Virus record (IMG/VR): IMGVR_UViG_3300042197_000731
Location: 32,001 to 96,000 of that record
From: a virus
Length of the DNA: 64,000 bases
Direction: 5' to 3' (one strand)
The notes beneath the pieces were generated by a model. It worked only from the letters and a program-made list of their open reading frames with translations, did no database searches and had not been told where the DNA came from. Below, in pieces: positions 29,288 through 47,176 of this stretch. A program made the translations under genes and the position numbers. The number at the start of each line of letters is the position of its first letter. Position 1 is the stretch's first letter.

Positions 29288-29288
29288 A

Positions 29289-29492: not shown

Positions 29493-29524
29493 AGTGTGCC
29501 TTAGTATTAATTATATTAAAACAT

Positions 29525-29815: not shown

Positions 29816-29820
29816 TGATA

Positions 29821-30000
29821 TTATCCTAGAATTCGTTGCTTTTCGAACTTTTTATATTGATCTGACTTGTATAAATCACGCTCATCAAACTTAAGCATGT
29901 TTTCTTTACAGAATTCTCTATACGCATCAAGATCATTAAAGATTCTAGTTACTTCAGGCTTCATTGTTAGATGCTTTTCGATGTACTTTGGCACTGCCAT
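29821..30000 (-). CDS. Small hypothetical protein (59 aa)
   Basis: Read by hand: MAVPKYIEKHLTMKPEVTRIFNDLDAYREFCKENMLKFDERDLYKSDQYKKFEKQRILG, with an AAGGA RBS. Confidence 0.7.
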   Translation of the reverse strand: MAVPKYIEKHLTMKPEVTRIFNDLDAYREFCKENMLKFDERDLYKSDQYKKFEKQRILG

Positions 30001-30014
30001 GATAAATTTTCCTT

Positions 30015-30386: not shown

Positions 30387-30687
30387 ATAGTCCCTTCACT
30401 TCTTCAAGTTCTTTCATATTGTGATTAACGATATTGTCTTTGAACAATAGCAAGAACAACAATGCTGAATTTTTTTGAGAAAAATCTAAATGTAATCTCA
30501 TACCACCATTTCTTTGTTGTACCGAAACCTTGCTATTTTGAAATTGTATCGTGGTTATTTTCTTCGTGGAATCATAATTTATCTCTGCCTCCTGCATACG
30601 TGCCCACTCTATGACTTCATCAGTGAGTTTATCTATATCTATTGTTATAGGAAATAGTCTCATGAGTTTGCTTTTATATCTTGCCAT
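30373..30687 (-). CDS. Hypothetical protein
   Basis: 104-aa ORF coupled to both neighbours. Confidence 0.6.
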   Translation of the reverse strand: MARYKSKLMRLFPITIDIDKLTDEVIEWARMQEAEINYDSTKKITTIQFQNSKVSVQQRNGGMRLHLDFSQKNSALLFLLLFKDNIVNHNMKELEEVKGLYVTA

Positions 30688-31583: not shown

Positions 31584-32029
31584 ATTACATCTTTGTATGT
31601 TCTGTATCTTTTTATTTCACGCACGACATTAAAACTGACATTATAATCATCTGCTATTTCTTTCATCAAGCGTGAGTCATTTCTTATTGACCTTACATCA
31701 TTCTCTGACAGCGTTCGTTCTTTATATTTGTGATTACGTTTTTTATTATACATATCACGCACATTGTCTAAATGAGTTCCTAAAAATAAATGTTCTGGAT
31801 TTACACACAGTCTGTTGTCGCATTTATGACACACATAAAAATTATCAAGGATCATTCCAGACATTTCAGCGGAAAGTCTATGTGCTTTTACAGATTTTCC
31901 ATTATATGAAAAAGCACCATATCCAGTAGCATATCTTCCAGCAGTCCATTCCCAGCAACCATTAGATGTGTTTTTGTTTACTTTTTCCCAAAATCTTTGT
32001 TCTAAGTTTATTGATTTACGGCCAGCCAT
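31580..32029 (-). CDS. HNH homing endonuclease
   Basis: RFWEKV, CWEW, GYG.F, AHR and VCHKCDNRLCVNPEHLFLGTHLDNVRD. Confidence 0.9.
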   Translation of the reverse strand: MAGRKSINLEQRFWEKVNKNTSNGCWEWTAGRYATGYGAFSYNGKSVKAHRLSAEMSGMILDNFYVCHKCDNRLCVNPEHLFLGTHLDNVRDMYNKKRNHKYKERTLSENDVRSIRNDSRLMKEIADDYNVSFNVVREIKRYRTYKDVI

Positions 32030-32055
32030 TTTGTTTTATAGTAATTGAGGATTAC

Positions 32056-32307
32056 TCATTCTTCAATCCAGAATAGATCACTTACGTTGTTTTGCTCTCG
32101 TTTAGGAAACCAAATACTTTTTGTTTTCTTAGTCAATGATTGACCAACTAGTTCCTCAAACCTTTTGACTGCGGCCTCATCTTCAAAGTTAATCAATAGT
32201 TGACGATATGCTCCATTGTCAGGCTGATTGTATGATGGCATATTTTGCCAGTGTTCGTCATAGAACTCTTGTGGCCACTCGATAACTTCTTCGTCAGTTG
32301 TATTCAT
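32056..32307 (-). CDS. Small protein of the type that accompanies TET-associated glycosyltransferases
   Basis: HWQNMPSYNQ...INFEDE...VGQSLTKKTKSIWFP. Confidence 0.6.
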   Translation of the reverse strand: MNTTDEEVIEWPQEFYDEHWQNMPSYNQPDNGAYRQLLINFEDEAAVKRFEELVGQSLTKKTKSIWFPKREQNNVSDLFWIEE

Positions 32308-33041
32308 TATTGCTTCTGTACTGGTAGTAGATATTCGTATTCGGTAAGTCCGCTATCAAGTGTAATACGCATAACACCCGCATCACTGATATACACATGT
32401 TTATCACCTGTTAGGTCCATAATTGCTAGAAATTGCTTTACAGGCCAGTGAAAAGATTTAGACAGTGAGCCAGATACACCTGCTTGAAAAACGAACTTGC
32501 CAGCATGTGTTGATGGATTACCAAACGACATTGCTATAGAGTTATTTTCATATAGTACGTTGAAATTTGGCTCATCACTATGTACGTTAGATTGCTTTTT
32601 GAGCCTGGTAATACCCGCAACAGTAGGCTTAAAATTCAAATGCCAGGTAGCACCCTTGAAAATAACGTTTTTGATTTTTTGCTCAACCAATGTCTTACTC
32701 ATTAGACGATAGTCATTGGCAAAATCGCCATCCTTATTTTCAAAGTGAATTACCGCTGGATGATCTTCGCCATCCTTGGTTTCTTTAAGTACATTGATCT
32801 TGGCATCAGAGTTATATTCATCGTCGAAACTAAGAATAGTTCGTAGTTTTTCAAGTGAAGGCATGCCAAAAACACCCTTAAAGGCTGGAATAGATGTCTT
32901 CATCCTAGCATTTAAGATGACTGTTTTGTTTTCGGTAACAGCAGAAATCGTAGTTTCTATGTCTGTGCCAGTTACTTTGATTAGTTCAATATTGCCGATA
33001 GGCAACGTATGATGGATGATGTCGTTTAGTATGTCCTTCAT
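32307..33041 (-). CDS. DNA polymerase sliding clamp (gp45-like)
   Basis: About 244 aa, adjacent to PolB, with FGMPSL, NDYRLM and ITLDSGLTEYEYLLP. Start at MKDIL. Confidence 0.7.
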   Translation of the reverse strand: MKDILNDIIHHTLPIGNIELIKVTGTDIETTISAVTENKTVILNARMKTSIPAFKGVFGMPSLEKLRTILSFDDEYNSDAKINVLKETKDGEDHPAVIHFENKDGDFANDYRLMSKTLVEQKIKNVIFKGATWHLNFKPTVAGITRLKKQSNVHSDEPNFNVLYENNSIAMSFGNPSTHAGKFVFQAGVSGSLSKSFHWPVKQFLAIMDLTGDKHVYISDAGVMRITLDSGLTEYEYLLPVQKQ

Positions 33042-33066
33042 TGATTTTCCTGTATTGTTTATGGAT

Positions 33067-33095
33067 AGTTTAATGTCTTGATGTTTCAAAGTCAA
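33067..33095 (-). promoter_or_regulatory. Sigma70-like promoter
   Basis: Minus strand TTGACT-N17-TAAACT upstream of the clamp RBS. Confidence 0.5.
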
Positions 33096-33113
33096 GATAA
33101 TTGTTTACAAAGT

Positions 33114-34145
33114 TTATTCAAAAACGAAAAGATCACTAAGAACTTCGTCAACTGCGGTAAGTTCACGTAAATTCCAGTTTAGTACGGATAGTAAGTTATC
33201 AATCTTTTCGTCAACCAGAGTTGTTTCCATGCTTGCGTCATCAAATGGCAAAGATAGGAACCATTCTGGCAATCGTAGTTCATCGGTTGGATATGCGATA
33301 CTAGTAAAGTTGTGTGGGTTTGATTTTAGTTTACAAATAACAACACGCATACCATCAACGATCTGCATACTGTAATTATCATTGTTTATCTGTCTTAGAT
33401 AATTCCAGTTCAGGCTAGCCCGGACATGTCCGGGCATATTGGTATCACCATCATCTTCGTCACTGACAAAGATTGACTTGTCCATTTTTTTGGCATTTGA
33501 TTTTGCTTTGTTAGCATATAGTGTTAGATTGTTGACGGATTTCGGACTGCCCTTCATCCAACTGCTCATTTCTGATAGTTCTTTTTTGAATGTTTTTATC
33601 TTTTCAATAATGAATTCTTTTTCTTTACCTGCTAGAACTTCCTCTAACACTTCCATGAGAAATACTTGAACAAATTTTGGAGTATCACTGCGTTTGAGAT
33701 CAAGTCCCATGGCCTTGATTTTACCACGTTTACCATTAACATCTAATCTTTTGCCTTCTTTATCATAGATGTTTACAGCATAGCGTTTCTTCGTGATGAA
33801 TAGAGCACGATCACCTACTAACTCTCGGCCTGCCTTAATAATTTCACCGTTCTTTGTTGGACAATGAAATGCTTGCTTCATAAATTGTGGGAAACTGGCG
33901 TTTGTGTCGTTGGCAAGATCATCGTAAATTTCAATGGCTCGTTCCTTTGACCAATCTAGGGCATCAATTGCGTTACGTTCTTTGATAATAGGCCAAATGC
34001 TGTAATAAATGGAGTCGGTATTATGAACCAATATATCATTGGCAAAAAAATAAGGATCAGCATCCTCTATGCTAAGATCGTATACGTAATCATCTACTTC
34101 TCCTAAACACTCTACTGAATTTACTTTTGTCCATTCTGCATCCAT
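33114..34145 (-). CDS. Family B DNA polymerase, C-terminal part, preceded by the split-intein C half
   Basis: The first 42 aa end in VYDLSI...FFANDILVHN and are followed by TDS, KKRYA and GLDLKRSDTP. Confidence 0.93.
   Translation of the reverse strand: MDAEWTKVNSVECLGEVDDYVYDLSIEDADPYFFANDILVHNTDSIYYSIWPIIKERNAIDALDWSKERAIEIYDDLANDTNASFPQFMKQAFHCPTKNGEIIKAGRELVGDRALFITKKRYAVNIYDKEGKRLDVNGKRGKIKAMGLDLKRSDTPKFVQVFLMEVLEEVLAGKEKEFIIEKIKTFKKELSEMSSWMKGSPKSVNNLTLYANKAKSNAKKMDKSIFVSDEDDGDTNMPGHVRASLNWNYLRQINNDNYSMQIVDGMRVVICKLKSNPHNFTSIAYPTDELRLPEWFLSLPFDDASMETTLVDEKIDNLLSVLNWNLRELTAVDEVLSDLFVFE
34020..34145 (-). mobile_element. Split intein, C-terminal fragment (42 aa)
   Basis: Blocks F/G: YVYDLSIE..PYFFANDILVHN, followed by Thr+1. 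Confidence 0.9.
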
Positions 34146-35083
34146 TGTACTACCCTTTCTATTGTTTCAATTTTGTTTTTTCTAAATTCATTTTCCCATA
34201 TAACCATTACTCTAAATCCGTGATTTATTGCCGTTTGTATTTTCTTTTTGTCTTTTTCCCACACATCTTTTGCCAACATATTGCCTATAATTTTTCTGTC
34301 TTCTTTGTATATAGAAGGATTACAGTGCCAATAATCTCCATTGAATTCTATTATACAGTTTTTGTGTTTTATATCAAATATAACGTATGAATTTAATTCG
34401 TGACACCATTTTCCATAAGGTTTATTAAATGTAGTATGCTCTAGACGACCAACTTTTTCTTCTAACATTGTTGTGAATTCTTTTTCTAAGTTTGAACCTA
34501 AATTTTCTTTTGATTCTTTTCTAGATAAAATCACTTCAACGGCTTCGTCTAGCGTAATTTGAAGTTTGTTAGCGATTGCTATTGCCGAATTAGAGGTTCC
34601 TTTTTGTTTGTTATACTCTAAATATTTTATTGATCCAAGATCTTGGCCATACTTTTCAATAAAATACTCTTTAGTATTACTGTATGCCTGTTTATCACAA
34701 TATTCATGCCATTTTCTCAAGCCTTCTTTTTCGCCGTATCTTTCAATACATTTTTTTAAAGTAATAGATCTGCTAGCATTATATTCTAAAAATTGTTTCT
34801 CAGACCATCCATATTTTTCTTTTTTATATTCATATGTATTAGAGTATGCTTGCTTTTCGCAATATGATTTCCAACGTGCTTCTCCCTCGATCTGTCCATA
34901 CTTTTTAACCATATTTTCGTATGTTAAAGTTGTTTTTTTTGCTAAACTAGGATCAACTAACATAGCATTTGGATATTTTTTTAGATATTCGTCACACGTC
35001 TTAATTTTGCCAGAACATTTATATCTTAGATGTGTCCATTGAATTCTGTTAACTTCTTTGCTACATTCTAAACATTTAATCAT
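34121..35083 (-). CDS. Free-standing Vsr/EDxHD-like homing endonuclease
   Basis: IIEFNGDYWHCNP...DKKK...VIWENE, an N-terminal CxxC..H motif and repeated KYG..EG..W..YC.KQAYSNT units. It sits between the intein halves. Confidence 0.82.
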   Translation of the reverse strand: MIKCLECSKEVNRIQWTHLRYKCSGKIKTCDEYLKKYPNAMLVDPSLAKKTTLTYENMVKKYGQIEGEARWKSYCEKQAYSNTYEYKKEKYGWSEKQFLEYNASRSITLKKCIERYGEKEGLRKWHEYCDKQAYSNTKEYFIEKYGQDLGSIKYLEYNKQKGTSNSAIAIANKLQITLDEAVEVILSRKESKENLGSNLEKEFTTMLEEKVGRLEHTTFNKPYGKWCHELNSYVIFDIKHKNCIIEFNGDYWHCNPSIYKEDRKIIGNMLAKDVWEKDKKKIQTAINHGFRVMVIWENEFRKNKIETIERVVQWMQNGQK

Positions 35084-35115
35084 ATGCTGATACTCCTATC
35101 AGCATATATTTATTA

Positions 35116-37503
35116 TTATTTTGGAGAAAACGTTATTATTAAATCATTTTCTTTGATTTCATTGGGTTTGACTTCGGTCAAAAACCCATCTCTGTCTACG
35201 ATTAAACTATGATCTTCTGTTACTGTTACTTGCTTTCCATTTTTGGTAGTTATACGATAAAGTTTCTTTTTTGTTTTATGCCGCATAACATAACTGATTG
35301 AATAAGCATTGGGTTCCATTTGTTCAGCACTAAATCCAAGAACTTTAGTTTCGTTCCAAACTCCGTATTCTTTCTCGCCTACTTTTGAATGTTCTAGGCA
35401 ATTCGCATATAAACTAGCAATAGTCATATCACCATCAGATGTTCTTATAATAGAATCTCCCGTAACACTGTCGCCATAAATTACTGCTTTGCCCGTTAAA
35501 TCATACTCGCCCGTTACAAGTTCGTTTAACTTAGAACCCATATGTTTTACGATTTGTCTACCGGATAGTGTAACGCTCTGGCCTATACGCAAATCATAGA
35601 ACCTACAATGCTTGTTAAGCAGGGCTCCGTATGCTGAATTAAGCAAAATTTTACGCACTAATTGACGTTTGTCCAGAAATTCTTGTTCTTCTTTGGTTTT
35701 TGCTTGCTTTAGTTTTGCTTGAACTTGTTTCCGTTCACTGTACCATCTGGTAAGTAGGCCCGGGATAACGCCTTCTTGTCCATAGGTGAATATAGTGCCA
35801 TTAGCACTTAGCATCCATGGCTGATTGCTATCGTAGATCATATGCCAAATTTCAGCAGCACTGTATGTATCACTGACGCCACGCTCCCAATCTATAGTGA
35901 TTAGAGTATCGCGTTCTTGGTTCATAACGGCGGTGTATTCAAGAGAGCCAAATAAGCCTTCCCATAGAATTGGACCTGTGATATCCTTAGCAGTTTTGTT
36001 TCTTTTTTCTCGTGCTAATCTGGTCTTCTTATCTTCAATATATTGTTCTGTTAAGGTTTGTCTGAGTTGTCCAACGATTGTTTCTGGTGCCATGTTAATA
36101 GCGCGGATAACTGACGGGTATAGACTGTTGATGTCGCACGCCGCGACCCACTCGTGCATACCCCTTTTGGGCGTAGCAACAAAGGCACCGGCGGCAGTGA
36201 TATCTTCTTCGTCATCATCTTCTTCATAAATTTCATCCTTAAGGTCAATTGTTTTGTTTTGAACGATTAGATTTCTATGATGGGCTTCATTAATAACAGC
36301 CTGCTCAATCATGGCCACGCTACCCATAACTGTTTTTAGCAGTACGGTATTTTCGTGAGCAAGTTGATTTGCCAGATCCAAGAATTTTAACTTGGCATGA
36401 ATTTTGTATACTAGTAGTGTGTCTTGGCGGTTATATTCAATGAATTTTCGCCAGTCACGATTGAACAATTGATCTAGTGTGCCTTCGTATTGAGTTTTGT
36501 TTTCTCCTACTTCCATTTCACCGATGTAGTCAAGTTTATAACTATGTCGTTGCTCGTAGTTATACTTCTTGTACAGTTGTAGATAGTCCATATGAACACG
36601 ACCAACTAGTTCATATGTAGTTTCTGTTTTGCCAAACTTGTTGATAATTTTTTGTCTGGGATGTTGATCAAATAAGCAAAATCTACGGGTATCGTTCTTG
36701 CTCATGACCCTGGTTACTCTATTAACCATATAAGGTATATCGTAACTCTCACTGTTCCAGCCAGTAAGCACATCAGCATCATCAATTAAGGCAAAGAAAG
36801 TCTCAAACATATCCACCTCATTGTCGAAGATGAATACATTATCAAAATCTTTTACCAATTCTTTTGCTGTATCAGCATCAATATGTGCGGGAGGAATACA
36901 CAATGTAACTAACTGTTCCAGCCAATCTAGATATAAGGTGATAGCCGTGACATCATTGAATGGATCTGTAGTAGGCGCAAATCCAGGGCCGAGTTTTAGA
37001 TACTTACATGTGTACACGCTATCCCAACGAAGATTGTCTGGATCGTATACTTCACAATCATCCTTATTAAGAAGATGACTGAGTTCATGTACCGTTATTT
37101 TTGATGTCGTGCGCTTACTCTTTGAACGAGTTTCTACGATATGCGAGTTTGGATACGCATATGGCTGCATATTGACTTCAATGTCGAAGAACACTGTATG
37201 TAGTTTAGGTGCTGGACGATCTAGATAATTATCTGCTAGACATCTGAAAACTGGATTAACATCACTCTCAAACAATCGCTTATTTGATAGAATACGTTTT
37301 TCTTTTTGAAATTCACTTAACTTTCTGGTGTTGAATTTACTCAGGGCATCACCGTAAACACTACGATACTTGCCCTTGGGATCTTCCCAATATAAAACAT
37401 AGTTCGTAGGATAATCCACATAGCGACGAACTCCACTATCGTCACGCTCAACTACGTGAATTATGTCCTTGTCTCGCTCAAGGACAGCATCTACATAACT
37501 CAT
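35116..37503 (-). CDS. Family B DNA polymerase, N-terminal part, ending in the split-intein N half
   Basis: ExoI FFDIEV, ExoII GWNSESYDIPY, ExoIII YNRQD, motif A DINSLYPS, motif B KILLNSAYG, then YGD followed by the intein. Confidence 0.94.
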   Translation of the reverse strand: MSYVDAVLERDKDIIHVVERDDSGVRRYVDYPTNYVLYWEDPKGKYRSVYGDALSKFNTRKLSEFQKEKRILSNKRLFESDVNPVFRCLADNYLDRPAPKLHTVFFDIEVNMQPYAYPNSHIVETRSKSKRTTSKITVHELSHLLNKDDCEVYDPDNLRWDSVYTCKYLKLGPGFAPTTDPFNDVTAITLYLDWLEQLVTLCIPPAHIDADTAKELVKDFDNVFIFDNEVDMFETFFALIDDADVLTGWNSESYDIPYMVNRVTRVMSKNDTRRFCLFDQHPRQKIINKFGKTETTYELVGRVHMDYLQLYKKYNYEQRHSYKLDYIGEMEVGENKTQYEGTLDQLFNRDWRKFIEYNRQDTLLVYKIHAKLKFLDLANQLAHENTVLLKTVMGSVAMIEQAVINEAHHRNLIVQNKTIDLKDEIYEEDDDEEDITAAGAFVATPKRGMHEWVAACDINSLYPSVIRAINMAPETIVGQLRQTLTEQYIEDKKTRLAREKRNKTAKDITGPILWEGLFGSLEYTAVMNQERDTLITIDWERGVSDTYSAAEIWHMIYDSNQPWMLSANGTIFTYGQEGVIPGLLTRWYSERKQVQAKLKQAKTKEEQEFLDKRQLVRKILLNSAYGALLNKHCRFYDLRIGQSVTLSGRQIVKHMGSKLNELVTGEYDLTGKAVIYGDSVTGDSIIRTSDGDMTIASLYANCLEHSKVGEKEYGVWNETKVLGFSAEQMEPNAYSISYVMRHKTKKKLYRITTKNGKQVTVTEDHSLIVDRDGFLTEVKPNEIKENDLIITFSPK
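35119..35469 (-). mobile_element. Split intein, N-terminal fragment (117 aa)
   Basis: Block A SVTGDSII and block B VTVTEDHSL, followed by a stop codon. Confidence 0.9.
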
Positions 37504-37769
37504 TACAGAGTTCGCCCTACTGTTTCTAGAATGGTATTTAGTTCTTCCATATCACGGTTTACTTCGGTCAACTTACTCTTATTTGCGACTTTGATAGCCT
37601 TCTTTAGAATAGATGGTTTGATCTCAAGTTCTTCTGCGATGGCTTTTACGGTCTCGTTAAGGCCAGCGTTTAGATCTTCTACTTCTTGAAGAACTTTGAT
37701 TCCCTCGTTGATTAATTGGCTAAGTTTGATTTTGGCTTCATGATTAAATGTTCGATTGTAGTCACTCAT
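37503..37769 (-). CDS. Putative dsDNA-binding protein (T4 DsbA-like)
   Basis: 88 aa with LNETVKAIAEELEIKPSILKKAIKVA and an AGGAG RBS. Confidence 0.65.
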   Translation of the reverse strand: MSDYNRTFNHEAKIKLSQLINEGIKVLQEVEDLNAGLNETVKAIAEELEIKPSILKKAIKVANKSKLTEVNRDMEELNTILETVGRTL

Positions 37770-37836
37770 GTGAACAGAACTCCTGATGTTAGATGGTTTG
37801 TGTATTGTACGCTGAAGTTGATCAATCAATCAACGA

Positions 37837-37928
37837 TTTTGGAAAAATGCCCCATTTTGAATAGAATGAGTAGCGAATTCATTGTACTATTGAGGTATGG
37901 GGCGACCTACTCGGTCCTAAGGCCAAGA
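37837..37928. ncRNA. Putative structured intergenic RNA element carrying 23S rRNA H69/H70-matching segments
   Basis: Nested stems TTTTGG/CCAAGA, GCCCCAT/ATGGGGC, AATAG/CTATT, AATGA/TCATT and GACC/GGTC, with loop GTAGCGAAT and segment CGGTCCTAAGG. Confidence 0.5.
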
Positions 37929-37931
37929 CTG

Positions 37932-38084
37932 TTAACCGATGATTAAGTATGTTAGATAATTAACATCGCTTTGATTTTCTAAATCATCAGTATATTCAAT
38001 TTTTTCTAAGACAAATTCTTTGCCTAGATTTTCTGTAGTATTTATAGTTTCTTCTGAGGTTGGAACAATATTAGATTCGTTCAT
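37932..38084 (-). CDS. Small acidic hypothetical protein (50 aa)
   Basis: Read by hand: MNESNIVPTSEETINTTENLGKEFVLEKIEYTDDLENQSDVNYLTYLIIG; it overlaps the dps stop. Confidence 0.45.
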   Translation of the reverse strand: MNESNIVPTSEETINTTENLGKEFVLEKIEYTDDLENQSDVNYLTYLIIG

Positions 38085-38514
38085 TCAGTGTAGCCTTTAA
38101 CATCCAACTATGTTTTTTATGGGCATCAATTCTATTCGCTAGGAAGTCACTTAATCCCACTTCGCCCTCACGTTCCGAAAGATCATATACCATTTTAAAG
38201 ATTTTAACGCACTTTTCACTATCTGAGAGTAGATCACTGATCATATCAAGGGCGGGTGGAACAATCAGTTCATCTTCTATTTGTGATAGCATACTAAGTC
38301 TTGTATAACTGCCAGGAGTATAACTTCCTAACTTTCTGATATTTTCAGCGAATGGATCTATGCTTTCAAAAACTTCTTCGTAAATTTTTCCGAATAGTTT
38401 GTGATACTGAGAAAAGTCATTTCCTTCAACATTCCAATGGTAAAAATGCGCTTTCAAATAGAAACTAAATTCAGTACTGAATGCTATTTTCATTGCTTTA
38501 ATTAACTCTTCCAT
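38071..38514 (-). CDS. dps: Dps/ferritin-like DNA protection protein
   Basis: HFYHWNVEG.DFSQYH.LF..IYEE, DPFAENIRKLG and HKKHSWML. Confidence 0.92.
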   Translation of the reverse strand: MEELIKAMKIAFSTEFSFYLKAHFYHWNVEGNDFSQYHKLFGKIYEEVFESIDPFAENIRKLGSYTPGSYTRLSMLSQIEDELIVPPALDMISDLLSDSEKCVKIFKMVYDLSEREGEVGLSDFLANRIDAHKKHSWMLKATLNERI

Positions 38515-41500
38515 TATTTACTCCGTGATTTTTTATTTATTCTTTGACTTTTAGATAGTGAGCCAACTGGACTTACGGGATTATCTACACCTATCGTTGC
38601 TGCTGATCCACTGTAACCTGCTTGATTTAACTCTTCTTCAGTGAGTGGTATACCAAATGCTCTAAATGCGTCTAATTTAGTGGAAGATGCGGAATCACCT
38701 GTAAGATACCAGCCACGAACATCACGGCGCATATTGAATTCGTTGATCAAGATTTTTTTATCTGTACCAACTACGTTGAAGTATAGATTTTCATTGGTCT
38801 TTGATTTACCCCAATTACTTGCGCCACGTTTACGGCATTTGACTAGAGCGCCACTGGCATACGCACTTGGCCATACCTTATAACGACTCTTGACTTTATA
38901 GTAGCAGGCATCCTTTTTCTCGGTCAACATATCAATATTGAACATAGGACCGCTACAGTGAGGACATGCTTCTTCTCTTAATGGAGAATTACTAACAAGT
39001 TTGTTTATTACTCGTAGTGTATTTGGACCTATTTTTCCATCTGGGTCTAGACCATTTTGACGCTGAAACTCTTTAATGGAATCAACATCAGTTAAGCCTA
39101 GTTTTTGTATATTTTGCCGTTGAGTAGTTTGTTTTCTAATATTGTAGTCGGTATTACTACGATCACCTCTTGTTGCGCCAGATAGATAATTGTAGTATTC
39201 TCCTACTTTCATATCACGAAAATGTGGGTTACCTGCAAGTAATTGCTTTCTTTTTGCTTCTACTTTCGCTGGATTTCTGGAATCGTTTGGATTACGACTT
39301 TTCCAAGCGTCCATAAGAGTATCAATAACTGCTTTGTTGGGATCATTGCGTACACCGTCATATATATCTACCGCACCACGACCTCCTACGGCGTGTGCCA
39401 TATATAAATTTACTTTGTCTGGCACGATGCCATTATTTTTTAGGACACTGGCATTTTCATTTGTTAATTCTTGTAGTAATCTATTTTGAGTTGCTTGATC
39501 AAATTTTGTAGTTTTTGGATCAATGCCTGCTTTTCTAGCAAGATTTGCTAGTGTGCTTCCGACAAACTGATATGCGCCTACTGCGTTAGCATTGCTGTGA
39601 TTATCAGATCTATACTTTTGAAAACGCATTACTTCATCAACGGACATGTCTGATAGTTTTTTAGCGCCGCCTAGATTTTCTTTACTCCATTGTTCGGCAG
39701 TGAGTAATGGTGCACCGACGTTTGGCCCCTTATTCGCTTTTACTATATTAACAATTTGGCCATTTTGTACAACATCGCCAAATGCTATATCTGGATTTTT
39801 TTGAGATTCCGCTTTACCGATAGCGTCTACTATTTCTTCAGGTGGCGGTAGGGGCATACGTTGAATAACTCCAGTACTGCCCGTATCGGGTCTGGATAAA
39901 TCAGCCTCACCAGCATATCTAAGTTGTTCGGGTGTTAAATTTGATCTTAATTCCTGTTGTTGAGCTGGCTCTTGTTGTACCCGAGCATTTTGTGAAGCCC
40001 TATTTGGCGCGGATTGTGATGGCGGTTTAATGGGTTCACTGATTGAAGGTTGTGATTGTGCTTGATCTTCAGCATCACGTTGAGCCTGGCTCATTTGTTG
40101 TCGTGGTTCAACTTTGATGGCGGATGCAGAGGTAGTACTTCCTGTAAATGGTGGAAGATTAAGAGTTGCTCCAGCAAATATTTTATTAGGATCTTTAATT
40201 TGCGGATTTAATCGCATTAACTCAGCAACAGTGACACCATTTTGTCTAGCAATTGTACTTAATGTATCACCACGTTCTATGGTCATTGAGTTTGGTATAG
40301 CAGGTTCACTGATTGAAAGTTGTGATTGAGATTGATCTTCAGCATCACGTTGAGCCTGACTCATTTGTTGATTTATTTTTGGTGTTTCTGGTCTTTGTGT
40401 AAAAGATGGTGTGGTGCCCATATCAACCGCTGATTGTGATGGTCTTGATTGTGCCGGAGTTGATGGCCCACCTGGCAATGATGGTAATGGTAAATCTCCC
40501 ATAGCAGGTGAAGAAGTACGATCATCATCAGCGCCGCCACCACTTAATGCGCTTGACGTGTCAGTTGATACACCAGTAGTTGGTGCTGATCTGACCGTTC
40601 CACTAGCAGTTGTTCCAGGTGGTCTGGCAATACTTGCTTCTGCTTTTTTAATTAATTCTTGATTTGTTACTTGTATACCGCCTGGATGATACCATTTGCC
40701 ATCACGCTTTGTTAAATTTCCACCCAAACGCGATAAGCCTTGATCAATGATTCCAAGATTTGCTTGTTGGCTCGGTGTTTCTGGCTGTCGGCCAAGATCT
40801 CTGGCAGTTGGCTCTGGTTGATAATATTGACCAGTTCCGGCACGAGGCATTGCGCCGCGCCTAGGTTCAGTTGCTTTTCTTTGAACTGAAGTTGATGCTG
40901 GTGTGACAGTAGTTGTAGGTGCTGCTGATTGTGTCCTACCGCCGGACTGTGCTGCTCTGTATTTTGCCCATTCCTCTGGTGGAGCATATATACTGGGTGT
41001 TCCAGGTTTTGGTTGATATGTAATAGTTGGTCCAGCGGCTAGTCTGTTTTTCGGAGCAGTAGTAGAACTGGGTTCTGGTTTAGGAGCAGCAGGTGAAGTG
41101 GCAACTCTTGTAGCAGCAGCCTGTCTAGCGGCAGCCCGAGCTGCAGCCGCAGGATCAACCTGTTGAACTGGAGATTGTACTCTAACTTCAGTTGATGAAG
41201 TTTGAGATCTGGCACCTGGACCAGGTCCGGCACCAACAGAGGCAGCACTTAATCTGTTTCTTTGTGCTTGTGCTGCGGAATCAGTGCCTGTCGCACGAGC
41301 TTTGTTTTCAAATACATTTTTTAATGTTATCTCTTGATCTTCTTTTACTTTGGTGCTAACATTTATTGCTGCTCCACGGCGTTCTGGATTAGGATCCTCA
41401 CGGCGTTTTTTACTAGCAGCACTGGCTCGACCTTTTTTACCTAGTGAGTGTGCTTTGCTGCGTGGCAAGCATTTTGGCTTACCTTCGCCCTCACTGCCAC

Positions 41501-41669
41501 GCGCACACTCTCCTCGAATTTTTCCATCAGGCCCAAATCTTACCCATTTTTCTTTGAACCATTTTCTGAGATTTTCGGTAATGACTTCACTTTCAACATC
41601 TTTGGCATGTATTAAATTTTCAGTGATGTTTACTTTTTTGTTACTGGAATAAAACTCATATAAATTCAT
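38514..41669 (-). CDS. Modular putative internal head/ejection polyprotein with LysM, lysozyme-like and peptidoglycan-binding domains
   Basis: LysM (IERGDTLSTIA...LNPQIKDPNKIFAGATLNLP), muramidase-like (GKAES...AVGAYQF...FDQATQ...YMAH) and PG-binding (EFQRQNGLDPDGKIGPNT) domains, plus short Cys modules bounded by xxE sites. Confidence 0.75.
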   Translation of the reverse strand: MNLYEFYSSNKKVNITENLIHAKDVESEVITENLRKWFKEKWVRFGPDGKIRGECARGSEGEGKPKCLPRSKAHSLGKKGRASAASKKRREDPNPERRGAAINVSTKVKEDQEITLKNVFENKARATGTDSAAQAQRNRLSAASVGAGPGPGARSQTSSTEVRVQSPVQQVDPAAAARAAARQAAATRVATSPAAPKPEPSSTTAPKNRLAAGPTITYQPKPGTPSIYAPPEEWAKYRAAQSGGRTQSAAPTTTVTPASTSVQRKATEPRRGAMPRAGTGQYYQPEPTARDLGRQPETPSQQANLGIIDQGLSRLGGNLTKRDGKWYHPGGIQVTNQELIKKAEASIARPPGTTASGTVRSAPTTGVSTDTSSALSGGGADDDRTSSPAMGDLPLPSLPGGPSTPAQSRPSQSAVDMGTTPSFTQRPETPKINQQMSQAQRDAEDQSQSQLSISEPAIPNSMTIERGDTLSTIARQNGVTVAELMRLNPQIKDPNKIFAGATLNLPPFTGSTTSASAIKVEPRQQMSQAQRDAEDQAQSQPSISEPIKPPSQSAPNRASQNARVQQEPAQQQELRSNLTPEQLRYAGEADLSRPDTGSTGVIQRMPLPPPEEIVDAIGKAESQKNPDIAFGDVVQNGQIVNIVKANKGPNVGAPLLTAEQWSKENLGGAKKLSDMSVDEVMRFQKYRSDNHSNANAVGAYQFVGSTLANLARKAGIDPKTTKFDQATQNRLLQELTNENASVLKNNGIVPDKVNLYMAHAVGGRGAVDIYDGVRNDPNKAVIDTLMDAWKSRNPNDSRNPAKVEAKRKQLLAGNPHFRDMKVGEYYNYLSGATRGDRSNTDYNIRKQTTQRQNIQKLGLTDVDSIKEFQRQNGLDPDGKIGPNTLRVINKLVSNSPLREEACPHCSGPMFNIDMLTEKKDACYYKVKSRYKVWPSAYASGALVKCRKRGASNWGKSKTNENLYFNVVGTDKKILINEFNMRRDVRGWYLTGDSASSTKLDAFRAFGIPLTEEELNQAGYSGSAATIGVDNPVSPVGSLSKSQRINKKSRSK
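40033..40370. repeat. 68-nt direct repeat pair flanking the LysM domain
   Basis: Copies at 40033-40100 and 40303-40370 with 4 mismatches, encoding QQMSQAQRDAEDQ(S/A)QSQ(L/P)SISEP. Confidence 0.9.
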
Positions 41670-41671
41670 GT

Positions 41672-41893
41672 TTATTTTCCTAATTTGGCTAGATACGCAG
41701 CATTTGATAGAGAGTTTTTCAAATTACTTGCTGTTTGTGGAGTTTCGGCTGCTTTGGCTATTAATGGAGTAAGAGCACTCATGGCTTGTTGTTCTGGACC
41801 TGTGAGTGGTTTTTGATCATTTATTTTTACAACGGCACTGGCTGCCTGATTGATGTCAAGATTTGGGCCCAACACATTTTTTAAACCACTCAT
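41672..41893 (-). CDS. Probable C-terminal part of the upstream gene, separated by a frameshift
   Basis: The frame is open without stops from 42043 (FKVEAAPPTPNAQ...) into this ORF. Confidence 0.55.
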   Translation of the reverse strand: MSGLKNVLGPNLDINQAASAVVKINDQKPLTGPEQQAMSALTPLIAKAAETPQTASNLKNSLSNAAYLAKLGK

Positions 41894-43594: not shown

Positions 43595-46045
43595 TTATTT
43601 ATCTTTCTGCTGTCTATATGTTCCGCCAAACAAGGTGCCAACTTTGGACTTATTCTTTATCTTTGGATTTACAACTCCAGCAATACTACCTGCTGTAGTT
43701 TCATCTATTGTGGATTTTTTTGCTACATCTTTTAATTTCAAGATTGTGGCATTATTGCGATCCGCCCAACGATTTGCTTCATCTTCGCTACGAAAAACTT
43801 TTGTTTTTACTATTTTTTGATCACGATTGTTATACACTTGAATCAACGCTTCTACCGAATTATCTGTGCTTTCCGATACGCTTTCCTTCTTGGTATTTTT
43901 CACACAATTAGGGTATTTTTTACCAAACATAGTTTTCATACCCTCTTTACGATAGCCTTTCCAACATGCCTCGCCTACTTTGCTCTCATTGACGCCAAAA
44001 TCTTTGTTAGTAACTTGCCACGGCTGTTTTAAAGGAACAGGATCTGGACTTGGCTTAACACCAGCGGTAGTTGAAATATTTTTTGCTCTAGCAAGATTAG
44101 ATTTGACCATATTTAACGCATCTGGAGTAATGCTTCCACGAACGCCAGTTTGAGTAGCATCTGGAACGACATCGAAACCCTGACGTTTCATGCCACTGCT
44201 TTGTAAAACTGTATCAGTTTTTGAAACAATTTGATCTAACTGTTTTTGATCTGTACCTTCCGCCACACCTTGCTTTAGACGCTTGCCGTTGATTACTTCT
44301 ACACCGTTGATTTCTAAAGGATACCAATCATTGATTGCCAATCGTTCAAACACTTCATCCAACGAACTGGCTTTTACTTTCAACTTTACTTGCTTGGACA
44401 ATGCGTTGCTCTTGTCAAAGGCTAATACTCGGTAAACTTGATCCGAGCCTTCCGCCACACCTTGCTGTTTCACACCTTGCTGTTTTTGTTGACGTTTTAC
44501 TGCTTTCTGTTTAGCAAGTTTAGCAGGGCTTGTTGGTTGTTTTAATCCTTTTTTCCAGTTAGCAGGTGGAGTTTTAATCTCGCCTCCCCACTGGTCAAAT
44601 TCGCCTTCCGCCACACCTTGTTCGCTAATATGCTTTAGATGCGTAGTAGTTAATACGAAAGAATCCTTATACTTACCATCTTCGCCGGCTTTGCTAGGAT
44701 CGTCTAACTTAACTTTAACTCGCCCATCTACATTGATATTTTTAGATACAGCAACAATCGTACCTGTGCCCAACGGACCATCTACACGATCTCCTACATT
44801 GTAGGTATTCTTAAAGCCTTCCGCCACACCTTTCGCCTTTAGGTGCATGTCTCTTGTTTTTACATAACGCTTGGTTTCTTTATCTCCAGATTCAATATCA
44901 CCTTGATTATAATGCCCTATTGCTCGTCCTGCGTGTTTACTTGCAACCACATCGGGATGTTCTTTGCCTTTGATAGAACGCTTGATGCCTTTTACAACAT
45001 CACTAAAGCCTTTCGCCACACCTTGGCGGCCAAGTTTTTTCTTAATACTAGCGATTTCACGGGCAATAGCATTTTGTTTAGTCCAGAAACTGTAATCATC
45101 ACTGTATTGATATTCTGGATCAAATTCGCTTTCTAACTCACGCAATCTTGCTTCTAATTCCTCTCTACTTGGCTCAGGCGCATACTTTGCTTGTGATTTA
45201 GTTGGACCACCAGTTTTTAATTGACCGCTCTTTTTCATATCATCAATCATCGCAGCAAACTGACTATGAAAATCACTTTCATTAACAGTTGATTCAGACG
45301 CAGCACGTATTGATTTTAGATCTTTATCTGATGGCGCACCTTTGCTGCCAGGTTTACGCATACGTTCACCACTGCCACCTTTTATACGTTCACGTTTTGC
45401 TCTGATATTAGCCCATAAGCCCGGTTTTTCACTCTCACTTACTGGCTGTTCAGTTGATGTAGTGTTATCGGCGGGTAAATTTTTAGTGTAGTAAATTACA
45501 GATTTTTTATCTGATGCTTCATCGTATTCACGCTTAATCTTCTGTGCCATTTCTGGATTTTTATCCATCATGGATCTGAAGTATGTTTTGGCGCCATTCA
45601 ACCAATTGAATTTTTTAGGCATGCCATCTACGCTAACAGGATTGCCCTTAACGATAACATACCAAGGACCACGCTCAAAATCTTGAAATTTTTCTTCTTC
45701 GTCTTCCGCTACTGGAGCGGTTGACTCAACTACACTATTTTTTTTTACTGGTTTCAATCCTTCTGCTAGTGGAAGAAAATCATCTTCACCAGCGTCAACA
45801 TTCATCATTTGATATTCAAGATGTTCTCTGACCGATTTTAGATAGTCATTTGCTAGTGTTATCTTGGAAGCGACCCAACCTTCTAAGCCTTGTTCTTCAG
45901 AAATATTACGTAATAACTTGTGTAGAACAATAGCATGTTCAGCGGCATAGTAGCAATCTACTCTGGCCATTTGAACTTCGTGATCGCTATGGGCTTCATG
46001 TGCGTCCTCTAAGAAGCCTTCCTTTAGAAACTGTTTACTATTCAT
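43595..46045 (-). CDS. Modular putative internal head polyprotein with a QGVAEG-delimited cassette array
   Basis: 816 aa made of short unrelated modules separated by (L/V/I)xE sites, with five (Q/K)GVA(E/K)G linkers. Confidence 0.75.
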   Translation of the reverse strand: MNSKQFLKEGFLEDAHEAHSDHEVQMARVDCYYAAEHAIVLHKLLRNISEEQGLEGWVASKITLANDYLKSVREHLEYQMMNVDAGEDDFLPLAEGLKPVKKNSVVESTAPVAEDEEEKFQDFERGPWYVIVKGNPVSVDGMPKKFNWLNGAKTYFRSMMDKNPEMAQKIKREYDEASDKKSVIYYTKNLPADNTTSTEQPVSESEKPGLWANIRAKRERIKGGSGERMRKPGSKGAPSDKDLKSIRAASESTVNESDFHSQFAAMIDDMKKSGQLKTGGPTKSQAKYAPEPSREELEARLRELESEFDPEYQYSDDYSFWTKQNAIAREIASIKKKLGRQGVAKGFSDVVKGIKRSIKGKEHPDVVASKHAGRAIGHYNQGDIESGDKETKRYVKTRDMHLKAKGVAEGFKNTYNVGDRVDGPLGTGTIVAVSKNINVDGRVKVKLDDPSKAGEDGKYKDSFVLTTTHLKHISEQGVAEGEFDQWGGEIKTPPANWKKGLKQPTSPAKLAKQKAVKRQQKQQGVKQQGVAEGSDQVYRVLAFDKSNALSKQVKLKVKASSLDEVFERLAINDWYPLEINGVEVINGKRLKQGVAEGTDQKQLDQIVSKTDTVLQSSGMKRQGFDVVPDATQTGVRGSITPDALNMVKSNLARAKNISTTAGVKPSPDPVPLKQPWQVTNKDFGVNESKVGEACWKGYRKEGMKTMFGKKYPNCVKNTKKESVSESTDNSVEALIQVYNNRDQKIVKTKVFRSEDEANRWADRNNATILKLKDVAKKSTIDETTAGSIAGVVNPKIKNKSKVGTLFGGTYRQQKDK
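44256..45025 (-). repeat. Five dispersed in-frame 17-nt direct repeats CAAGGTGTGGCGGAAGG
   Basis: Copies at 44256-44272, 44448-44464, 44604-44620, 44817-44833 (1 mismatch) and 45009-45025 (1 mismatch), plus a partial copy near 44471. Confidence 0.93.
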
Positions 46046-46072: not shown

Positions 46073-47176
46073 TTATCTACTATTTGTAATTGCGTCTGGA
46101 TGTTTTCGGTTGTAAAGACGCATGATAACGCCTGCTTGGGCATTTGCGCCATTTTCTTCATCACTACCTGTTACGCCGGAGTTGTGGTCTAATTCATTGT
46201 TTAAGTGTTGTTTGTAATGTACTAATTCGTGTGCTAGAGTTCTTAACACATCAACAGGATGTCTGCCATGTACACCTACCAATATCATATTCTTTTCAGG
46301 CATGAATTGACCAAAACTGCTTTGAATGCCATCGCCGCCTATCGTCATCTTGAATGAAATCTTGGGTAAATTCTTTATCTCCAACACCTTCATTGCTATC
46401 GGTAAAAATTGTCTAATAGAGCCTTTTAGAGCATCTATAGTTGATATGTCTTCATTGATTTTACCACTTATTGGACTTGCTGTATCCGTGCTCACGCCTA
46501 CTATATCTTCGGTTGTTGCTGATTGAATCTTATCAAAAATTGTGCCCAGTTCTTGACGTGGATATTTGTACATCTTGGTCAAGAATTCTGTTCTCTCTTC
46601 TGGATTGTTACGAATTTTGTTCCATAAATTTCTAGCATCAGTGCCGTGACTTACGTCATATGTTTCGTTGCCGATGGTAATTTTTTTCTGTAGTTCCGGA
46701 ATCACTACGACATATCCATGTTTATCGGCAGTGACTGGTTGCTCACCATCTCGCAGTGTTTTGTAGTAACTAGGGCTACCTGCTGGTTTGGTAATATTTC
46801 CGTCTTTGTCTTTTTGATCTCTTTTGGTATATGTATCTGGGTTCAATCGATCAGCATCTGGGCCACCTACCACTGTTATGAATACAGTGTTTGCTGGGTC
46901 AAATTTTTGTGGTAGTACATACATCTTGTTGGTTTCAATAATTCTGTCACCAGGAACACCAGCAGCGGTCATTAGTTGATATTTGTCGTTGAAGTTGAAT
47001 GGGCTTTTAGGACCACTGGTATCATTGCTAGTGAGAATGTACACATTTTCACTGCCAAATCTACGTTGTAGTATTTCAAATACGCCAGCATGGCCTTGAT
47101 GAAATGGCTGAAATCTTCCAGGGTAAGTAACAATTACATCTGGCTTTTGTTGTTCGTAAAGTTCGTATGCGTACAT
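46073..47176 (-). CDS. HIGH-motif nucleotidyltransferase-like domain fused to an HEXXH zincin-like domain
   Basis: YPGRFQPFHQGH at the N-terminus; LRTLAHELVHYKQH...ENGANAQAG at the C-terminus. Confidence 0.72.
   Translation of the reverse strand: MYAYELYEQQKPDVIVTYPGRFQPFHQGHAGVFEILQRRFGSENVYILTSNDTSGPKSPFNFNDKYQLMTAAGVPGDRIIETNKMYVLPQKFDPANTVFITVVGGPDADRLNPDTYTKRDQKDKDGNITKPAGSPSYYKTLRDGEQPVTADKHGYVVVIPELQKKITIGNETYDVSHGTDARNLWNKIRNNPEERTEFLTKMYKYPRQELGTIFDKIQSATTEDIVGVSTDTASPISGKINEDISTIDALKGSIRQFLPIAMKVLEIKNLPKISFKMTIGGDGIQSSFGQFMPEKNMILVGVHGRHPVDVLRTLAHELVHYKQHLNNELDHNSGVTGSDEENGANAQAGVIMRLYNRKHPDAITNSR

Follow-up and report, generated by a model that had tools for sequence, protein, structure and literature searches.

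An in-frame linker between exchangeable modules of a T4-related water phage protein and its probable use as a protease site

A short linker, the peptide QGVAEG with the DNA core GGTGTGGCGGAA, is a recombination junction in the coding sequence of an 816-aa modular protein, because the homology of its flanks nearly always ends there, the modules around it are reordered among homologues and a joint from another sample falls inside the repeat. The source is an uncultured giant T4-related water phage. A protein family scan, which covered 89 proteins of the 123-kb record (itself only 35% complete), found that a T4-type major capsid protein, prohead protease, portal and gp55-like sigma factor are all encoded, together with many homing-endonuclease genes. 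The prohead protease is of the gp21 type (G000 5388-6020, minus strand; phrog_207, E=2.2e-59).

On balance we favour the explanation that the linker is a dual-use junction, serving exchange as well as cleavage, in the cargo polyproteins of aquatic phages related to T4. As DNA, the linker is a short, nearly invariant homology block that recurs at hundreds of unrelated module boundaries across many phage genomes, and in-frame recombination or replication slippage at this block would insert, delete, reorder and exchange modules of 50-130 aa. At the protein level it would present an exposed [V/M/L]-x-E|[G/A/D] site to the gp21-type prohead protease. A T4-like N-terminal leader, MNSKQFLKE|G, may carry the polyprotein into the prohead core, and the polyprotein would be cut into separate small proteins that are kept with the DNA and ejected into the host like the T4 internal proteins.

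Linker copies, modules and their exchange

With up to 3 mismatches allowed, a search of the window, that is, the whole stretch of 64,000 nt that was analysed, found CAAGGTGTGGCGGAAGG five times, each time on the minus strand, where 0.03 copies are expected by chance; none of 100 shuffles reached five copies. All five lie in frame inside one ORF, the 816-aa modular ORF (stop codon counted; 43595-46045, minus strand), which contains two short motifs of unassigned function in PHROGs and matched 0 Pfam families at E<=0.01. Copy 1 (CAAGGTGTGGCGAAAGG, QGVAKG) occupies the M0/M1 junction at 45009-45025 with one mismatch (..GCGAAAGG), and copy 2 (AAAGGTGTGGCGGAAGG, beginning AAAGG and encoding KGVAEG), also with one mismatch, the M1/M2 junction at 44817-44833. 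Copies 3, 4 and 5 are exact, encode QGVAEG and mark the M2/M3 (44604-44620), M3/M4 (44448-44464) and M4/M5 (44256-44272) junctions, all of them, like the first two, on the minus strand. The spacings along this coding strand are 192, 213, 156 and 192 nt, each divisible by 3, and the units between the copies measure 64, 71, 52 and 64 aa. DNA identity ends where the core ends, and the sequences on either side of the copies do not align. The first-pass annotation had described five identical 17-nt repeats separating unrelated units; the five in-frame copies and their periods stand, but only three of the five are exact.

The linkers divide the protein into at least six modules, all on the minus strand, that are shuffled among homologues. 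The N-terminal part M0 (residues 1-345; 45011-46045) is itself composite and carries PVAE|D at 45701-45715 and the phrog_16028 motif at 45314-45430. It is followed by M1 (residues 346-409, 64 aa, pI 9.7; 44819-45010), by M2 (residues 410-480, 71 aa; 44606-44818), which a low-confidence model predicts to be a small all-beta domain, by the K- and Q-rich M3 (residues 481-532, 52 aa, pI 10.2; 44450-44605) and by M4 (residues 533-596, 64 aa; 44258-44449), a predicted beta-beta-alpha-beta-beta domain. The C-terminal part M5 (residues 597-816; 43598-44257) is again composite; besides the phrog_4359 motif (43820-43981) it contains additional V-x-E sites, e.g. GVNE|S at 43982-43996. Modules M1-M4 are mutually dissimilar: a lenient all-against-all blastp gave no inter-module match better than E=0.036, and the short cross-matches were mostly linker residues. 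Tandem domain duplication is thus ruled out, as the units cannot be aligned as diverged copies, and they are as unrelated as had been claimed.

The modules are found in other arrangements elsewhere. Four homologues with M0 at 94-98% identity (P0001, P0002, P0003 and P0005) have other module sets or orders, P0002 with M3 placed directly after M0, and two more with the same M0 identity (P0006 and P0007) have no M1-M4 at all. More distant homologues reorder the modules, M4-M2 in P0025 and M4-M4 in P0032. M1 is present whole in 18 of 120 homologues, in other contexts, and for every module a separate set of homologues exists in surroundings other than these. When the 298 linker contexts were compared in pairs, 3 pairs were homologous on both sides, 64 upstream only and 89 downstream only.

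A joint at the linker was also seen in DNA assembled from another sample. A contig of run X4, which lacks M1, passes directly from 44821 to 45014, points that lie inside linker copies 2 and 1, and skips exactly 192 nt; 11 letters are shared at the joint and the shorter side measures 113 nt. A 439-nt contig of run X8 matches only 44255-44472, i.e. M4 alone, with unlike DNA on either side. No deletion joint was present in the contigs of run X1, possibly the sample of origin, and the four runs were compared as assembled contigs, not raw reads, in which rare variants are invisible. Joints with one side of only 20-23 nt are other organisms' contigs matching the repeat itself and were left out of the counts. 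Breakpoints, reordered homologues and the single X4 excision joint all agree with the proposal of the first-pass annotation that cassettes are gained, lost and shuffled at a DNA-constrained site. Exchange at the linker is observed, and we infer an enzymatic route behind it. For classical homologous recombination, 12-17 nt of homology is little, which counts against the explanation we favour.

The linker is widespread. At least 129 IMG/VR stretches contain its exact 17-mer, and 12-17 nt are shared over about 280-300 flank clusters. Among the matches listed, 162 of 166 copies have their longest open frame in the QGVAEG reading, all 37 distances between copies of the same locus are multiples of 3, and none of the 129 loci has copies on both strands. 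The control, 80 bacterial-genome matches, consists of single copies throughout (mean GC 0.63), with the QGVAEG frame longest in only 33. Cultured phages carrying M1-M4 were not found; their matches (cyanophages, pelagiphages and similar) are restricted to two mini-motifs, residues 206-244 and 692-738. A search of the literature found no publication that describes the linker.

Proposed cleavage and packaging

The linker is probably also a cut site for the phage's head protease, and the case for cleavage at VAE|G is circumstantial. According to the available part of PMC9026906, gp21 cuts after L/I-x-E, and gp21-type proteases are characterised by Glu at P1 behind a hydrophobic P3. Among the 40 distinct boundaries of M2 and M4 homologues, 35 fit [VLIM]-x-E; E is invariant at P1, and P2 varies freely (A, T, G, M, K). 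The 816-aa protein has 11 occurrences of V-x-E-[GASDNE] where 2.0 are expected (z=6.8), the top value of 133 genes.

The leader MNSKQFLKE|G (46019-46045, minus strand) ends in L-x-E and is similar to the capsid-targeting sequence of T4; T4 IPII and IPIII begin with MKTYQEFIAE|A. In the homologue N-termini compared, F-[LI]-K-E-[GDE] is kept in 18 of 18 and the start M-[NK]-[STP]-x-x-F in 17, the remaining one having 5 extra residues before M. By analogy with T4, the leader may target the protein to the head. A leader-like N-terminal regular expression matched 4 of 133 genes versus 0.9 expected, with a maximum over 200 shuffles that is also 4, a signal too weak to be counted. The linker itself can stand close to a start: in 9 of 168 contexts it follows a first ATG by no more than 30 aa, and examples of these leaders are MRATEFIIEGVAE|G and MKTLREYINLIE..QGVAE|G.

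The alternative that survives best, possible although on the unlikely side, is that the linker is a recombination adapter and an inter-domain spacer only, which is never cut and leaves one multidomain 'polyvalent' protein. Breakpoints at the linker require no protease. Also, P3 at the linker is V and thus differs from the L/I of the gp21 motif in the available text of PMC9026906, which counts against cleavage, and the N-terminus of the phage's own capsid protein has LLE and ILE, not VAE. However, V and E are kept where P2 varies, a pattern that follows a protease rule and is unlike a flexible spacer, and leaders of 9-16 aa that end straight in GVAE make sense mainly as removable propeptides. 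The excess of V-x-E at other junctions of the 816-aa protein likewise speaks against a mere spacer.

A protease of the gp21 type was matched in 4 of 7 other large motif-carrying contigs. The remaining three (G002, G004 and G005) gave no gp21 or capsid-protein match, but they are fragments or their head region may be missing, so that a lack of the protease does not follow; since G002 has many T4-type genes in common, its head module may lie off the contig. Profile searches with PF03420 and PF07068 gave no match anywhere, controls included, and therefore do not speak for absence. The modular gene lies about 70 kb away from the head-gene cluster, so the label 'head polyprotein' is unproven. The T4 late-promoter motif TATAAATA has 3 matches versus 10.6 expected in the window and 0 near the 816-aa gene, a result that carries no information on when the gene is expressed.

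Judging from the protease gene, the linker variants and the leader, it is plausible that the modules are virion-delivered cargo. If the dual-use reading is correct, these phages evolve their injected cargo by plugging modules together at a universal joint that also releases them inside the capsid. This would explain the fast diversification of host-takeover or anti-defence proteins in large phages, provide a sequence tag for harvesting several hundred candidate cargo modules from metagenomes and suggest a ready design rule by which T4-type capsids could be loaded with several proteins.

Codon spelling and neighbouring genes

The linker is conserved in its codons as well as in its peptide. We retrieved 79 loci by protein similarity, which gave 66 distinct GVAE contexts that are not phylogenetically independent; GGT is used in 63 of the 66, GTG in 52, GCG in 55 and GAA in 60, the respective backgrounds being 0.425, 0.188, 0.086 and 0.814. 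Genome-wide, GTG makes up 10.6% of the Val codons and GCG 13.4% of the Ala codons. VAE tripeptides in the three linker-bearing genes of the genome are spelled with GTG in 8 of 10 cases and with GCG in 9 of 10, versus 0 of 9 for each codon in all other genes (Fisher p=7e-4 and 1e-4). Inside the modules of the M4 family the invariant Ala is GCG in 0 of 24 cases and the invariant Val is GTG in 0 of 12, while the linkers of those 12 sequences have GCG in 10 and GTG in 11. Codon conservation in this family is 0.92 for the linker versus 0.81 for invariant module residues, a modest excess. The GGT-GTG-GCG-GAA spelling therefore persists against the bias of the genome, as had been noticed from this one locus, and linker codons that vary freely among orthologues, which would have spoken against a constraint on the DNA, were not seen. 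If the dual-use reading holds, the linker would be a clear example in nature of synonymous sites under selection, or under concerted evolution, for evolvability.

One could argue that the spelling serves the mRNA or its translation instead of recombination, as a rare-codon or Shine-Dalgarno-like pause between domains or as an RNase or RNA-binding site. GTG and GCG are indeed rare in this genome, and the motif, rich in G although the genome is AT-rich, contains AAGGTG and GGAAGG. However, GAA prevails although GAG would give a perfect GGAGG, and GTC (0/66) and GCC (1/66) are nearly absent at the linker despite being rare codons too. The same spelling is found in a genome of 47% GC (G002) and in one of 36% GC, and the homology stops exactly at the motif. 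We thus regard a function in the mRNA as improbable.

The neighbouring genes offer another candidate for the cut. The upstream neighbour (46073-47176, minus strand) encodes 367 aa with a nucleotidyltransferase-like N-terminal part and a HELVH (HExxH) motif, and its HExxH domain could be the protease that cuts the linker instead of gp21. Metallopeptidase processing of polyvalent proteins has been proposed in the available part of PMC5512222. A homologue of the 367-aa gene lies near the M0 gene in locus L139, and L085 has a short partial match of 71 aa. On the other hand, the 367-aa ORF matched no peptidase family in Pfam or PHROGs, P1 Glu with a hydrophobic P3 is the mark of the gp21 type in what is available of PMC9026906, and synteny is clear in L139 only (orf367, orf73, orf1051). 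Cleavage by this or any other protease outside the gp21 type is hardly to be expected. The downstream neighbour (1051 aa; 38514-41669, minus strand) has LysM, transglycosylase-like and PG_binding_1 regions and a weak DUF5872 match, and its N-terminus MNLYEFYSSNKKVNITE|N resembles the leader of T4 IPI.

Comparison with known systems

The closest counterparts are the T4 internal proteins IPI, IPII, IPIII and Alt, whose capsid-targeting sequence is removed by gp21 and which share with the 816-aa protein a short N-terminal leader ending in hydrophobic-x-E, a gp21-type protease in the same genome and unrelated mature parts behind a conserved leader. The DNA of T4 ipII and ipIII is identical from the ribosome-binding site through the targeting sequence and then diverges. 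The element described here differs in being internal and repeated and in joining modules in one frame, whereas the T4 leader heads separate genes; in addition, its P3 is V and the same 12-17 nt are common to the 129 or more contig stretches. The mature part of the 816-aa protein showed no similarity to the IPI, IPII, IPIII or Alt families in Pfam and PHROGs. Such similarity is a weak criterion because internal proteins are diverse: among T-even phages the targeting sequence alone is conserved, as stated in the available parts of PMC3012670 and PMC9026906.

Polyvalent proteins, in the available part of their description, are long, mosaic phage proteins of 2 to 15 unrelated domains (Iyer, Burroughs, Anand, de Souza, Aravind 2017, PMC5512222). 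They are probably packaged, and some of them may be split into separate units, for which an internal metallopeptidase domain is proposed. The many unrelated domains and the extensive mosaicism are common to both. In contrast, Pfam detected in the 816-aa protein no signature domain named in that part of PMC5512222, and HExxH is present only in the neighbour gene. A term search found 0 occurrences of 'linker' in the main text of PMC5512222.

Two further comparisons concern the boundary itself and its products. Botstein's modular theory is said to place short conserved boundary sequences between exchangeable phage modules, and short conserved DNA at the borders as the point of exchange is the likeness. 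His modules are genes or gene blocks with mostly intergenic boundaries; here the boundary lies in the coding frame, encodes a fixed peptide and separates domains. Viral polyproteins give several products from one ORF through repeated short protease sites. Their sites are not known to be bound to particular codons and their product set is fixed, unlike the codon-conserved linker and its shuffled repertoire.

A more ambitious version of our explanation is that an active mechanism dedicated to the 12-17-nt adapter uses it as its substrate (a phage nuclease, an annealing protein or sequence-recognising template switching). T4-related aquatic phages would then share an in-frame cassette system that trades injected anti-host proteins between genes and genomes, each cassette with its own protease release site, as a protein-level counterpart of the integron. 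We consider this doubtful.

Integrons have an adjoining tyrosine-recombinase integrase and attC-type imperfect inverted repeats that bound promoterless ORFs, and CRISPR arrays are non-coding, with 23-55-nt repeats and spacers of similar size beside cas genes. A dedicated site-specific system of either kind acting on the repeat, along the lines of the integron- or CRISPR-like array suggested by the first-pass annotation, would suit the cassette-like array with its conserved repeat and the many homing-endonuclease genes of the genome. However, the scan of 89 proteins of the 35% complete record detected no family of integrases, recombinases or cas proteins, the 17-mer has no dyad symmetry and is not self-complementary, the cassettes are in-frame pieces of one long ORF, and a 17-nt repeat with units of 139-196 nt between copies is unlike CRISPR. 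Such a system is therefore very unlikely, and as a mechanism this part of the suggestion is not supported. Chance, or diverged tandem duplication of one unit, is negligible, as nothing beyond the periodic layout favours it, whereas the shuffles never reached five copies, the modules do not align and each has its own homologue family elsewhere.

Fold predictions were made for two modules. M2 had been called SH3/KOW-like, for which the support is weak: its AF2 model has five strands (pLDDT 60.5), and the best Foldseek matches are UvrD Tudor domains (E=0.19-0.45) and the Spt4:Spt5 complex (E=1.1). M4 is modelled with higher confidence (pLDDT 80.2), and its best VIA Z of 4.9 is under the usual background; AcrIF9 (Z 4.4), RNA polymerase epsilon (Z 3.8) and T7 Gp2 (Z 3.2) are matches at noise level. 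Neither fold search gave a match at E<=0.001. The linker tails of both models have pLDDT <50. A 9-nt partial copy of the linker, CAAGGTGTG, which encodes the QGV of QQGVKQ, lies at 44471-44479 directly upstream of linker copy 4.

Linker copies and modules of the 816-aa ORF

The modular ORF of 816 aa (43595-46045, minus strand) harbors five copies of the 17-mer encoding the linker QGVAEG, all in frame, compared with 0.03 copies expected in the window by chance. The first-pass annotation had described five identical repeats; the number and the frame hold, but our mismatch search of the window found only the copies at 44256, 44448 and 44604 to be exact, while those at 44817 and 45009 (all on the minus strand) have one mismatch each. 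The copies are spaced by 192, 213, 156 and 192 nt along the coding strand, and alignment of their flanks fails beyond a core of about 15-17 nt. A cut after each GVA[E/K] would divide the protein into six pieces: M0 (residues 1-345), M1 (346-409), M2 (410-480), M3 (481-532), M4 (533-596) and M5 (597-816). A lenient all-against-all blastp of these pieces returned nothing better than E=0.036, and the short matches among M1-M4 cover mainly linker residues. The units are thus unrelated to each other, as had been proposed, and therefore are not diverged tandem duplicates of one unit, an origin which is ruled out. The repeat-and-module observation is real.

M4 is confidently predicted to form a beta-beta-alpha-beta-beta domain (pLDDT 80.2) and M2, at low confidence, a five-stranded beta domain (pLDDT 60.5); the linker tails of both models have pLDDT below 50. 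Fold searches gave no significant structural match for either model. The earlier description of M2 as SH3/KOW-like agrees loosely with its best matches, Tudor domains and the KOW-bearing Spt4:Spt5 complex, but none of these is significant and the model itself is poor. M1 and M3 are basic (pI 9.7 and 10.2). The only matches of the 816-aa protein in cultured phages are two mini-motifs, GLWANIRAKRERI...KGAP and CWKGY...PNCV (window 45314-45430 and 43820-43981, residues 206-244 and 689-742), which match 87 phage records; most are cyanophages, and the others include pelagiphages, roseophages and a Limnohabitans phage.

Module exchange at the linker

Modules are not fixed: both their content and their order differ among homologues sharing M0. 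In the protein homologues P0001, P0002, P0003 and P0005 M0 is 94-98% identical while the module content is different, and P0006 and P0007 share M0 too, without any of M1-M4. The 120 homologues listed contain whole modules, from the first to the last residue, in other combinations: M0-M1-M2-M5 (P0001), M0-M3...M2...M5 (P0002), M0-M2 (P0005), M4-M2 (P0025), M1 and then M4 (P0028, P0029) and M4-M4 (P0032). We compared the 25-aa flanks of 298 linker contexts, in pairs from different loci and at a threshold of at least 50% identity per side: 3 pairs were homologous on both sides, 64 on the upstream side only and 89 on the downstream side only, and many contexts pair identical 25-mers on one side with unrelated sequence on the other. 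With interior peptides and the last pre-linker residues as queries, M2 homologues were retrieved from 6 loci and M4 homologues from 16; their neighbourhoods differ, and each homologue is bounded on both sides by the canonical or a variant linker.

The evidence from public sequencing runs consists of assembled contigs, not reads. A contig of the marine run X4 jumps from 44821 to 45014, leaving out exactly 192 nt, with 11 letters in common at the joint and 113 nt on the shorter side; this variant lacks M1, and its junction lies within the repeat. A 439-nt contig of the lake run X8 aligns only over 44255-44472, that is M4 with its two linkers, and has unlike DNA on either side. Many loose contig ends fall at 44255/6, 44464-70, 44603-5, 44622, 44832 and 45004. 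One-sided flank homology, the reordered homologues and the X4 joint bear out the proposal that cassettes are gained, lost and shuffled at the linker, and its role as a cassette junction is well supported. The accompanying comparison to an integron- or CRISPR-like array fails mechanistically.

In addition, some ORFs stop 1-11 residues past a linker (loci L031, L062, L117, L135 and L053; examples end in QGVAEGKK, QGVAEGC and QGVAEGLK), which would fit the loss, or the possible addition, of a downstream module.

Linker spelling across genomes

The exact 17-mer occurs in at least 129 IMG/VR stretches. Among the matches listed there are 166 copies; in 162 of these, QGVAEG is read in the longest open frame. 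Multiple copies occur in 31 of the 129 loci, all 37 intra-locus distances are multiples of 3, and no locus carries copies on both strands. The flanking peptides are highly diverse. A 596-Gb bacterial collection, used as a control, gave at least 120 matches; all 80 examined were single copies, mostly in GC-rich genomes (mean GC 0.63), with the QGVAEG frame longest in only 33, which is the pattern expected of chance matches and a few mis-binned phage contigs.

Because a DNA search recovers identical DNA only, and a codon count based on it would be circular, we fetched 79 loci via protein similarity (one of the six peptide patterns overlaps the AEG of the linker). In their 66 distinct GVAE contexts, which are not phylogenetically independent, GGT is used 63 times (background share 0.425), GTG 52 times (0.188), GCG 55 times (0.086) and GAA 60 times (0.814). 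The spelling GGT-GTG-GCG-GAA is therefore kept, with rare codons favoured over background, and the claim that the constraint acts on the DNA stands. In the sampled loci the flanks form about 283-299 clusters at 50% identity, and the median distance from one linker to the next is 71 aa (interquartile range 61-126, n=219).

Codon use within the whole 123,284-nt record (G000), where 10.6% of Val codons are GTG and 13.4% of Ala codons are GCG, follows the same division. Its genes encode 19 VAE tripeptides: the 10 in three linker-bearing genes use GTG in 8 and GCG in 9 cases, and the 9 in all other genes use neither codon even once (Fisher's test, p=7e-4 for GTG and p=1e-4 for GCG). QGVAE is found twice in the gene at G000 117903-118478 and again at G000 121116-123284 (minus strand, outside the window). 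The latter ORF runs past the contig end; it shows a GNAT-like motif close to its start and contains four VA[E/K] sites (GVAKE, GVAEG, SVAED, DVAED). The sole GVAE of the record in common codons (GTA GCA) sits in a 4524-aa ORF matching the virion structural protein family phrog_10938 (window 1-9750; G000 28179-41750, plus strand).

The identical spelling joins unrelated modules in codons avoided within the modules: across 12 M4 sequences, GCG encodes 0/24 of the invariant in-module Ala residues and GTG 0/12 of the invariant Val residues, compared with 10/12 and 11/12 in the linkers. Codon conservation in the M4 family is 0.92 for the linker, only modestly above the 0.81 of invariant in-module residues, so the case rests on identity across unrelated contexts and not on slow change within a family. 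We read the conservation as the result of homology-dependent exchange, or gene conversion, repeatedly re-spreading one linker sequence. Variants such as GAT GTG ACA GAA, GGT ATG GCA GAA and GAT GTG ATG GAA resemble degraded forms of the canonical DNA. One could argue that the rare codons serve as a translational pause signal, but this fits poorly with the retention of GAA, although GAG would give a perfect GGAGG, and with the remaining rare codons being nearly unused (GTC 0/66, GCC 1/66).

Protease-site reading, precedents and genome context

It is plausible that the linker is a gp21-type protease site and that the modules are cargo. The T4 prohead protease gp21 is described as cleaving after L/I-x-E, and T4 internal proteins as losing N-terminal targeting sequences of 10-20 aa at such sites (PMC9026906, PMC5694885). 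The indications of putative cleavage are all indirect. A gp21-type protease gene is present in this genome and in four of seven other large linker-bearing contigs; a fifth of the seven, G002, shares many T4-type genes but shows no head genes, which may be located off the contig. Boundaries of M2 and M4 homologues have [VLIM]-x-E in 35 of 40 distinct cases (GVAE in 24), with variable P2 and invariant Glu. The 816-aa protein contains 11 V-x-E-[GASDNE] sites where 2.0 would be expected (z=6.8), which ranks it first among 133 genes. Non-canonical sites such as PVAE/D, TVNE/S, PVSE/S, GVNE/S and SVSE/S (slash, putative cut) are among them, and some are, judged by eye, close to partial-match boundaries in homologues. 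The protein starts with MNSKQFLKE/G, and the leader core F-[LI]-K-E-[GDE] is found in all 18 homologue N-termini printed. Elsewhere, 9 of 168 linkers come within 30 aa after a first ATG, for example behind the leaders MRATEFIIEGVAE/G, MRASEFVNKQQGVAE/D and MKTLREYINLIE..QGVAE/G; in T4, IPII and IPIII start with MKTYQEFIAE/A and IPI with MKTFKEFTSTTTPVSTITE/A. The low-pLDDT linker tails point the same way. The gp21 reading is weakened by V at P3, which is outside the published T4 rule, and by LLE and ILE sites in the N-terminus of this phage's capsid protein. That the modules may be effectors, as first suggested, is drawn from analogy to T4.

The T4 internal-protein system is the nearest precedent. 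Starting at the ribosome-binding site, the DNA of ipII and ipIII is identical up to the end of the targeting sequence, beyond which it diverges, and reviews describe T-even internal proteins as diverse behind a conserved targeting sequence (PMC3012670, PMC9026906). The layout nearest to T4 ip genes is that of loci L105 and L107, whose ORFs (about 121-122 aa) encode a T4-like leader followed by QGVAEG and a single module; these genes represent a one-cassette version of the polyprotein. Polyvalent proteins share the idea of a multidomain mosaic, with processing proposed via an internal metallopeptidase, and the main text of that paper uses the word "linker" 0 times (PMC5512222). Different from both systems is an internal, repeated, in-frame and codon-locked junction common to hundreds of module boundaries. 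In full-text literature that covers few subscription journals, QGVAEG returned one unrelated fungal proteomics paper, GVAEG with phage nothing, and papers on internal proteins, prohead protease and polyproteins no description of the linker.

The IMG/VR virus record, of which the window is positions 32001-96000, is 35% complete according to CheckV, implying a genome of about 350 kb. Searching 89 of its ORFs against PHROGs identified a T4-related myovirus with a major head protein (phrog_138), head maturation protease (phrog_207, E=2.2e-59), portal protein, gp55-like late sigma factor, gp46/47-like nuclease, split B-family DNA polymerase, clamp loader, baseplate proteins and many homing endonucleases. 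The head genes are about 70 kb away from the modular gene, which lies in a minus-strand run that also includes genes for two proteins, one LysM/transglycosylase-like (1051 aa) and the other nucleotidyltransferase-like with an HExxH motif (367 aa). The 1051-aa neighbour (38514-41669, minus strand) has LysM, a transglycosylase-like region, PG_binding_1, a weak DUF5872 match, long P/S/A/Q-rich tracts and an internal duplication (QQMSQAQRDAEDQ.QSQ.SISEP, twice), and its N-terminus resembles the T4 IPI leader. The polymerase is split over window 33117-34145, 34124-35083 and 35119-37503 (all minus strand): a 795-aa ORF matches the N-terminal and a 343-aa ORF the C-terminal part of the PHROG profile, with a 320-aa ORF of phrog_22677, function unknown, between the halves. 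A GC-rich island (window 22001-24000; 0.479 against about 0.35 in its surroundings) contains HNH-endonuclease-like (phrog_1314) and ATPase (phrog_1297) genes, a pair found also in G002. At least six HNH or GIY-YIG homing-endonuclease-type genes lie in the 123 kb (window 21441-22727, 27689-28357 and 31583-32029; G000 13061-13477, 17193-17834 and 105970-106671) and might favour gene conversion nearby. Across the window, the T4 late-promoter octamer TATAAATA has fewer matches than expected (3 against 10.6), and late promoters are probably unlike those of T4 despite the encoded gp55-like sigma factor.
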